From positions 25,643-74,980 of the forward strand of contig JBBTTO010000002.1 in assembly GCA_038064195.1 (NCBI GenBank): 49,338 nt of DNA. The letters run 5' to 3'. Both the position numbers and the translations under genes were made by a program. Within the stretch, counting starts at the first letter, position 1; every line of letters begins with the position of its first letter. The notes under the pieces are model-generated. The model was not told where the DNA came from, did not search any database, and worked only from the letters and a program-made list of their open reading frames with translations. This DNA comes from Patescibacteria group bacterium (GTDB taxonomy: Bacteria > Patescibacteriota > Microgenomatia > Levybacterales > UBA12049). Shown here piece by piece: positions 5,251-5,340 of the stretch.

Positions 5251-5340
5251 TTATGGTCCTCCGATAATCATCGGAGCTGATGAGTTCCTTCCGCAAGCTC
5301 AGGTAAACTCTGAAATTGTAGATAAGGACGAAACCAAAAA
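5251..5340 (+). ncRNA. hammerhead ribozyme, type III topology (HHR1)
   Basis: GUC 5256-5258; stem I hairpin 5259-5276; CUGAUGA 5277-5283; stem II 5284-5290/5324-5329; GAAA 5330-5333; stem III 5251-5257/5333-5339. Confidence 0.8.

Follow-up and report, generated by a model that had tools for sequence, protein, structure and literature searches.

A putative type III hammerhead ribozyme (copy 1) was located at 5251–5339 on the + strand of a 49,338-nt stretch (the window) of contig JBBTTO010000002.1, from the Patescibacteria genome assembly GCA_038064195.1. We consider it likely that this element is a functional type III hammerhead and that it makes the 3′ end of the mRNA of an upstream gene cassette (cassette B, 2955–5049), beside a helix that closes the 5′ and 3′ parts of the transcript on each other. 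Copy 1 was recognized by direct reading of the sequence, by a descriptor scan and with a covariance model (R1). All sequence-defined features of the class were present and the comparative evidence was strong, which supports the type III interpretation given in the initial annotation of this DNA. Copy 1 is probably active in self-cleavage; that it cleaves in vivo, which termini the RNAs carry and that the cut stabilizes or insulates the message are inferences.

On reading the sequence, the cleavage triplet GUC (5256–5258), the closed stem-loop I, the core CUGAUGA and the GAAA (5330–5333) were each found where the initial annotation had placed them. The 5′ strand of stem III (U16.4–U16.1) plus C17 occupied 5254–5258, with C5258 as N17 and the predicted scissile bond between 5258 and 5259. 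Stem-loop I (5259–5276) had the sequence CUCCGAU-AAUC-AUCGGAG, giving 7 bp and a 4-nt AAUC loop, and was followed by the catalytic core C3–A9 (CUGAUGA, 5277–5283), by stem II (5284–5329) and by G12-A13-A14 with the 3′ strand of stem III, A15.1–A15.4 (5330–5336), in which A5333 and U5257 form the A15.1:U16.1 pair. Stem II paired 5284–5290 with 5324–5329, with one bulged U (5286) and the closing pair G10.1:C11.1 (G5284:C5329), as had been described. Its 33-nt distal part had the annotated length, but it folded as an extended imperfect helix and not as an unstructured loop. Similarly, the proposed stem III (5251–5257 with 5333–5339, one A-A mismatch) could pair throughout, but only the inner 4 bp had comparative support, and the outer 2 nt overlapped a long-range helix. 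Stem I was capped by its 4-nt loop and stem II by the distal hairpin, and both ends left through stem III, so the topology was that of type III. When only the isolated elements were folded, the hammerhead fold lay 0–3 kcal/mol from the minimum-free-energy fold.

The cut after C5258 would fall 209 nt past the stop codon of cassette B (5049), and a consensus scan detected no terminator-like site on the + strand between 5049 and 5251, in agreement with what had been annotated. A GC-rich hairpin directly 3′ of the stop codon (5058–5095, + strand), which was kept in three related loci (L032, L033 and L034), had no U-run after it and was not called a terminator by the terminator scan. A 61-aa open reading frame (ORF) starting with ATG (5177–5362) overlaps the ribozyme; it had no family match, was uncalled on the source contig and is unlikely to be a gene.

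A type III descriptor (CUGANGA, GAAA, N17 not G, and contiguous stems of at least 5 bp for stem I and at least 3 bp for stems II and III) matched exactly two sites on the two strands of the window, copy 1 and a second candidate hammerhead (copy 2; 7344–7412, + strand), the latter also being reported by the Rfam Hammerhead_3 model (RF00008; 25.1 bits, E 0.0014). In 400 composition-matched simulations the mean was 0.0025 matches per window, and none contained two. The predicted cleavage site of copy 2 (7351|7352, after C7351) lay 248 nt past the stop codon of a second cassette, the cassette C gene (5913–7103, + strand), which encodes a 396-aa protein with a twin-arginine-like signal. The two copies were in the same orientation, 2093 nt apart, and had in common a 34-nt stretch of 91% identity. 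Compared with copy 1, a C:G pair of stem I was U:G in copy 2, the loops were different and the distal stem II was unrelated; both copies folded.

Relatives of the locus were obtained by protein homology, with the cassette proteins and the glycosyltransferase encoded from 7527 as queries, and the retrieved contigs were numbered L0xx. Hammerheads were present at syntenic positions in six loci that had been fetched by protein homology only (L025, L032, L033, L034, L037 and L038). The hammerhead in L025 (1732–1806) followed the ortholog of cassette C, and its stems I, II and III differed wholly from those of copy 1 and yet all paired, stem I keeping its 7 bp and 4-nt loop. L037 had one copy, and full copies numbered two in L034 and three in L038, where the cleavage triplets were GUU or UUA. 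L032 and L033 carried cassette B orthologs, and both contigs stopped inside the syntenic hammerhead, just after CUGAUGAG. Contig ends inside a hammerhead were found in L027, L032 and L033 (3′ ends) and in L035, L036 and L037 (5′ ends), and these assembly breaks fell where the conserved part (stem I and core) gives way to the variable stem II. Thus, the conserved half acts as a repeat that breaks (short-read) assemblies, which implies several near-identical hammerhead copies per genome.

Covariation was examined in alignments that were fitted to the model structure, and the pairing values are to be read with this in mind. In a hand-made structural alignment of eight full copies, 94% of the pairs were canonical and compensatory double changes occurred at 12 of the 15 helix positions, while shifted registers gave 22–45% pairing; the core was invariant except for N7 (CUGAUGA or CUGACGA), and the GAA was invariant. 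An alignment of 11 sequences of the lineage had 95.8% of its cells paired, with changes on both sides in 12 of 16 pairs (0 of 500 shuffles). MAFFT mis-registered L025 and L038 because their stems have no common sequence; its alignment of the full-length copies was left unused, and the hand alignment and the four-copy covariance model were used instead. Among 72 matches of R1, metagenome members included, 97.9% of the cells were paired and 13 of 16 pairs had double changes (260 cells), a value reached by none of 500 shuffles, and slid controls gave at most 50%. Stem I was paired in 100% of the cells, with double changes in 6 of its 7 pairs, and the four proximal pairs of stem II were paired in 98.9%. 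G10.1:C11.1 was G:C in 72 of 72 sequences and U16.1:A15.1 was U:A in all 71 aligned family members, N17 was C, U or A, and the distal part of stem II varied from ~4 to 77 nt. A bulged U at 10.3 (copy 1 and L038c) and an A-rich stretch 5′ of the 3′ strand of stem II recurred. These substitution patterns indicate that selection maintains the core and the three helices of the hammerhead.

R1 had been built from four copies, copy 1 among them, and the 95.3 bits that copy 1 obtained is therefore the score of a training member. In the window R1 found copies 1 and 2 only; of the related copies it recovered L025, L037 and two of three in L038, and it also matched unrelated type III hammerheads in other metagenome-assembled genomes (MAGs). 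A metagenome scan with a stem I plus core signature, which fixed part of stem I and left stems II and III and the outer stem I pairs free, yielded at least 120 loci, at least 64 of them with complete type III hammerheads. A copy identical to copy 1 was present in a Hainich groundwater contig (L042), and two or three copies lay inside a few kb in L087, L074, L075, L092, L093 and L097. As judged from these matches, copy 1 belongs to a family of at least 72 predicted bacterial type III hammerheads from candidate-phyla-radiation (Patescibacteria)/groundwater bacteria and other metagenomes. All matches of a pattern scan of IMG/VR were type I hammerheads in which a GGTC occurred fortuitously, and a protein-based metagenome scan with a cassette C alignment gave no match. 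A scan of assembled-genome contigs with a free-stem-I pattern gave 20 matches, four of which were real type III hammerheads (L007, L009, L011 and L020) from unrelated MAGs; close relatives were absent from these matches.

The sequence just before each predicted cut was complementary to the leader of the same cassette. For cassette B, a 12-nt trailer arm (LR1′, GAAGUGCGUCUU, 5241–5252), ending 6 nt before the cut, was the perfect complement of a leader arm (LR1, AAGACGCACUUC, 2623–2634), and 0 of 300 shuffles gave a match this long. A second helix was nested inside it, between the LR2 leader arm (GUCUAUCAGUA, 2667–2677) and the 11-nt LR2′ trailer arm (UACUGAUAGAC, 5146–5156), and a hairpin (2640–2657) lay between the two leader arms. 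The same arrangement was found in cassette C, where LR1 (AGACGUACUCG, 5569–5579) pairs with LR1′ (CGAGUACGUCU, 7335–7345), an arm that again stops 6 nt short of the predicted copy 2 cut, and LR2 (5602–5611) pairs with LR2′ (7169–7178); all arms are given on the + strand. LR1 was assessed as the longest perfect Watson–Crick complement between the last 30 nt before a cut and the cassette's own 5′ untranslated region (UTR). By this measure it was present in 11 of 11 cassettes with a length of 9–13 nt, which was matched by 0 of 300 shuffles in 10 of the 11, and nearly all trailer arms ended 6–7 nt before the cut and so abut stem III. Five different LR1 sequences were seen (AAGACGCACUUC in cassette B, AGACGUACUCG in cassette C, GACGUACUUGC in L034, AGCUGUACAAGG in L038 and GCAUGCCGA in the second L038 cassette); those of B and C differed at three positions, each compensated in the partner arm. 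LR2, of 9–12 nt, was nested in 9 of 10 cassettes, joining the beginning of the trailer to a leader segment that lies 30–80 nt 3′ of LR1, and also covaried. Several of the LR helices extended via G:U pairs; counts of G:U against other mismatches at the helix ends were too few to separate an RNA helix from a DNA repeat. Whole-UTR RNAduplex calculations between leader and trailer (z 0.3 to -3.1) were uninformative because giant interior-loop structures were built. As sources of the arms, integron attC sites and transposon terminal repeats were rejected, since an attC site is one contiguous sequence and would not be divided between the two sides of a cassette, and the ends bound by a transposase are conserved and do not covary.

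In the rest of the family, long-range helices ended 6–8 nt before the site in L047 (18 nt, partner 867 nt away) and L087, and local hairpins stood at the same place (ending 6–9 nt before the site) in L038, L039, L069, L074, L076 and L149. In L038, a long local hairpin (7761–7873) ended at the cleavage site of the third hammerhead, and its 3′ arm overlapped the leader-complementary segment, giving this 3′ end two alternative partners. An Rfam match of this hairpin to MIR1507 was sub-threshold and spurious. The unrelated type III hammerheads L003, L007 and L011 had no such helix. In a sister lineage (L026, L030 and L031) the hammerhead was absent, and LR1′ was directly followed by a U-run: at L026 695–715 and 2357–2390 and at the ends of L030 and L031, a leader-pairing trailer arm AGUACGUCUU was succeeded by 6–9 U. 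LR1 plus the U-run looks like an intrinsic terminator with its upstream arm ~1.5 kb away, and from this variant it seems that what is conserved is the formation of a 3′ end beside LR1.

We propose that transcripts reading through cassette B (2955–5049) would fold the ribozyme and be cut between C5258 and C5259, so that the 3′ end of the cassette RNA would be made by RNA catalysis and not by an intrinsic terminator. Hammerhead cleavage leaves a 2′,3′-cyclic phosphate and a 5′-OH. The cassette RNA would accordingly keep a 2′,3′-cyclic-phosphate 3′ end 6 nt beyond the 12-bp LR1, with LR2 nested inside, and the downstream fragment would start with a 5′-OH and retain the ribozyme body. The tail would then be clamped to the leader, probably shielding it from 3′ exonucleases, for which a 6-nt tail should be a poor entry site. 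Cassette B RNA would also be uncoupled from the next unit, cassette C having a promoter-like site (5369–5397) and a predicted hammerhead (7344–7412) of its own. That LR1 stacks on the short stem III and thereby aids folding is speculation. On a wider and more tentative view, the hammerhead with its two covarying LR helices might be, in a clade of candidate-phyla-radiation bacteria, a dedicated mRNA-closure module for secreted/envelope genes rich in G+C at third codon positions (GC3), producing a pseudo-circular, exonuclease-resistant mRNA; the LR helix and U-run of the sister lineage would on this view amount to a "split" intrinsic terminator.

Several results weigh against the proposal of a functional, 3′-end-forming hammerhead. 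RF00008 did not report copy 1 even at E ≤ 10 in a 401-nt search (5100–5500), no match in the whole window passed its gathering score of 48.5 bits, and none of 20 sibling loci reached that score, the best being L034a with 35.8 bits and a compact 55-nt member (L081) having 31.3 bits. The initial annotation had named a score below threshold as an outcome that would count against a ribozyme; because the siblings also score low, we ascribe it to the curated model and not to the RNA. The RF00008 threshold misses this whole bacterial type III subfamily, and our assignment of copy 1 to the hammerhead class follows from defining features of sequence and predicted structure, not from an RF00008 match. 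As to folding, the minimum-free-energy structure of a longer context paired 5250–5254 with part of the core (ddG, the free-energy difference, 3–7 kcal/mol). Tertiary contacts between stems I and II are needed for fast hammerhead cleavage at physiological Mg2+, and no such contact, loop–loop or pseudoknot, could be identified: on inspection, loop 1 was not convincingly complementary to stem II. Many metagenome members of the family were without a detectable helix before the site. The LR1 leader arm of cassette C was internal to the transcript, ~165 nt from its predicted start, and the DUF11 gene upstream of cassette B may share its transcript, so that the description of both ends as tied together is approximate. 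Furthermore, the 5′-OH products of the Bacillus subtilis glmS ribozyme are degraded, not protected.

The cut could instead serve mainly the downstream unit, as a 5′ processing element or insulator that gives the next unit a defined, structured 5′-OH leader in the manner of RiboJ. With type III topology the ribozyme body stays on the 3′ product, copy 2 lies 115 nt 5′ of the glycosyltransferase gene at 7527 with no promoter-like site detected by scanning between them, and the position just 5′ of this gene is kept in L025, L034, L037 and L038. Nevertheless, a strong promoter-like site (5369–5397) stands 110 nt past copy 1, so that its 3′ fragment would be a short orphan RNA, the conserved and covarying partner LR1 sits on the upstream product, and L026 has a U-run, a 3′-end signal, in the place of the ribozyme. 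We regard a mainly downstream role as unlikely, noting that the two roles are non-exclusive because one cut makes both ends. Far less probable is the chance match or decayed, inactive relic, the weakest of the explanations weighed here: the missing Rfam match of copy 1 and its stem lengths (a long insertion in stem II, a short stem III), which are atypical of textbook hammerheads, would fit it, but the 0.0025 matches expected per window, the invariant core and compensated stems across 72 relatives and a position kept across lineages whose flanking proteins are only 25–60% identical do not, and the covariation already contradicts it.

Two further explanations take the paired copies or the paired arms as their starting point, and each appears very improbable. 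Tandem hammerheads might excise 5259–7351 (2093 nt), which an RtcB-type ligase would circularize into a circular protein-coding RNA, as with retrozymes and viroid-like RNAs. The two copies are in the same orientation at that distance, several metagenome loci have two or three copies, and a chimeric ribozyme formed from the joined ends would keep the 4-bp stem III. Against this, cassette B has a hammerhead at its 3′ side only, the proposed unit contains a promoter-like site, and the cleavage ends are not juxtaposed by the LR helices (the leader arm being 310 nt from the 5′-OH end). The region is also chromosomal, stable and syntenic, has housekeeping neighbours and lacks a reverse transcriptase or replicase; moreover, circular products of bacterial tandem hammerheads have been sought and none found (PMC3088659). 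Alternatively, the LR arms might be DNA inverted repeats at which a site-specific recombinase flips the cassette (phase variation), the hammerhead being unrelated. Inverted repeats of 9–13 bp do bracket each cassette, the promoter-like site is outside them, and recombination between arms would also keep them matched, so that covariation alone cannot discriminate. What argues against inversion is the presence of two nested repeat pairs per cassette in a fixed order, the fixed 6–7 nt spacing of one arm from the cut across lineages, the substitution of a local hairpin at the same place in L038 (1640–1712), L039, L076 and L149, the extension of several helices via G:U pairs and the same cassette orientation in 8 of 8 related loci; among the window ORFs scanned there was none for a recombinase.

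Cassette B (+ strand) comprised three GC3-rich ORFs (2955–3683, 3761–4324 with a PASTA domain, and 4351–5049; GC3 0.73–0.76), with orthologs in L032, L033 and L034, and the cassette C gene had a GC3 of 0.85. Cassette genes thus ranged from 0.73 to 0.85, in contrast to 0.44–0.52 in neighbouring genes, and the background of the window, about 43–46% GC, was interrupted by GC-rich gene blocks. The orthologs in L025, L026, L034 and L038 displayed the same contrast with proteins merely 25–60% identical, indicating that the cassettes are vertically inherited and fast-evolving, and not swapped inserts. This enrichment of GC at synonymous sites was long-lived and confined to hammerhead-terminated genes; selection on RNA structure or stability and biased gene conversion are candidate causes. 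Among 31 metagenome loci the DNA was GC-richer upstream of the hammerhead than downstream, the difference exceeding 0.08 in this direction in 15 loci and in the reverse direction in one, and metagenome ORFs ending 60–500 nt 5′ of the site were GC3-rich. A Pfam search of the cassette proteins found the PASTA domain only, a PDB sequence search gave nothing useful, and a PHROG search gave no convincing match, the one weak match being to a holin (E 0.0086) for a small ORF of cassette A.

The promoter-like site between copy 1 and the cassette C leader (TTGACA-17-TAGGAT, 5369–5397, + strand) had homologs (TTGACW-17-TAGRAT) at 1692–1720 of the window and in L026 (725–753), L027 (55–83) and L038 (~2833–2861). 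A near-palindrome, TCCTATAGGA or ATCCTATAAGAT, was conserved in their spacer and is a possible operator common to the DUF11 gene and the cassettes. The window matched a contig of a MAG (GCA_964359665.1). The neighbours in the window included an rRNA operon and genes for RadA, S1, TrxB, DNA ligase, RecF and Fpg, and close homologs of the glycosyltransferase were named Patescibacteria and Levybacteria. Thus, the locus is chromosomal DNA of a candidate-phyla-radiation bacterium and is syntenic in relatives. No integrase or phage genes were seen among the ORFs of at least 150 aa that were scanned.

Other repeats and structures were noted in the window. A third GC-rich block (~386–1363) contained small ORFs and was likewise bracketed by a 15-nt inverted repeat (507–521/1345–1359, 93% complementary), and neither the descriptor scan nor R1 found a hammerhead after it. 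An AT-rich repeat (ACCATAAGCCAT..GCTATTTGCC and its complement) occurred in intergenic DNA near the hammerheads (5454–5493, 7405–7444, 7474–7507 and 224–251) in direct and inverted copies, a 40-nt inverted pair of which brackets cassette C. Small palindromic elements (GTCATCCYGAA...TTCRGGATCTCA, and the related GTCATTGCGAG...) were present at 2570–2600 and 2700–2730 and scattered in leaders, as well as in L034 (5985–6060 and 7725–7800) and L037 (30–110); their insertion into the distal stem II of the L034 and L037 hammerheads explains the 77-nt insertions. A hairpin with 24-nt arms (2469–2546) lay directly 3′ of the DUF11 (CLIPPER) gene and was kept in L032, L033 and L034. On the - strand, the 23S rRNA match (18988–22317) spanned 3330 nt compared with a model of 2925 positions, so this 23S rRNA carries insertions; a tRNA (22607–22679) and a 5S rRNA (18692–18804) were also found, and the Rfam scan reported no 16S rRNA match in the window.

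Compared with the type III hammerheads of viroids, satellite RNAs and plant genomes represented by RF00008, the predicted ribozyme has the same CUGANGA/GAA core, GUC triplet, G10.1:C11.1 and A15.1:U16.1 pairs and the same three-helix layout, in which stem III is open and the other two stems are capped. It differs in its sub-gathering score, in a uniform 7-bp stem I with a 3–4 nt loop, in a stem II with a bulge or A-rich internal loop and an insertion of ~4–77 nt, in a short stem III abutted by a long-range helix, and in residing in a bacterial chromosome and not in a circular RNA replicon or retrozyme. Since the RF00008 threshold misses a family of at least 72 members, ribozyme censuses of the candidate phyla radiation are likely to be underestimates.

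RiboJ was engineered from the type III hammerhead of the satellite RNA of tobacco ringspot virus (sTRSV), as a synthetic element whose purpose is to standardize the downstream 5′ UTR. As in RiboJ, a type III hammerhead is here placed between units, would cut off the upstream RNA and would be kept as a 5′ structure of the downstream one; unlike RiboJ, its conserved partner structure belongs to the upstream product. Ribosomal RNAs are known to be enclosed by long-range processing stems, and bacterial mRNAs to pair between their 5′ and 3′ UTRs. The LR helices resemble these in that covarying complementary segments kilobases apart bracket a functional RNA, but they are short (9–13 bp, two nested), enclose protein-coding cassettes and are accompanied by a predicted self-cleaving ribozyme instead of RNase III sites.

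The initial annotation had called a ribozyme-defined mRNA 3′ end in a bacterial chromosome unusual. This was an overstatement, as gene-flanking hammerheads of types I, II and III were described in bacterial DNA in 2011, mostly in prophages (PMC3088659). Hundreds of bacterial hammerheads of all three types, often clustered, were found flanking genes in prophages, and clustered ones cleaved in vitro and in vivo (in E. coli) (Perreault et al. 2011, PMC3088659). What hammerheads do in prokaryotes was considered an open question in a 2017 review (PMC6155905). The present locus resembles those clusters in having several hammerheads inside a few kb on one strand, flanking single genes or short gene blocks of unknown function. 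The role proposed for the clusters was the processing of long transcripts into gene-length mRNAs, and here the cassette C gene lies between the predicted cuts at 5258 and 7351, a similar arrangement being seen in L034, L038, L074 and L087. In contrast to the prophage setting, the hammerheads here lie in a syntenic Patescibacteria chromosome with housekeeping neighbours and GC3-rich orthologs, and each is coupled to covarying leader–trailer helices. In the literature searched we found no description of such hammerhead-coupled helices, and no paper linking hammerheads with the biology of the candidate phyla radiation or Patescibacteria.

Hammerheads are the commonest self-cleaving ribozymes, and this locus offers a conserved chromosomal case with a fixed geometry of cut site and helix, in which the question of function (3′-end formation, mRNA stability or insulation) becomes testable and the U-run sister lineage provides a natural "control" for the function of the ribozyme. 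An mRNA-closure module, if true, would give chromosomal bacterial hammerheads a concrete function. The interest comes from the conserved surrounding architecture and not from a bacterial hammerhead as such: as a ribozyme, the element belongs to a known class, and what distinguishes it from the systems described above is its syntenic, non-prophage setting, the GC3-rich cassettes, the coupled helices and the U-run alternative.

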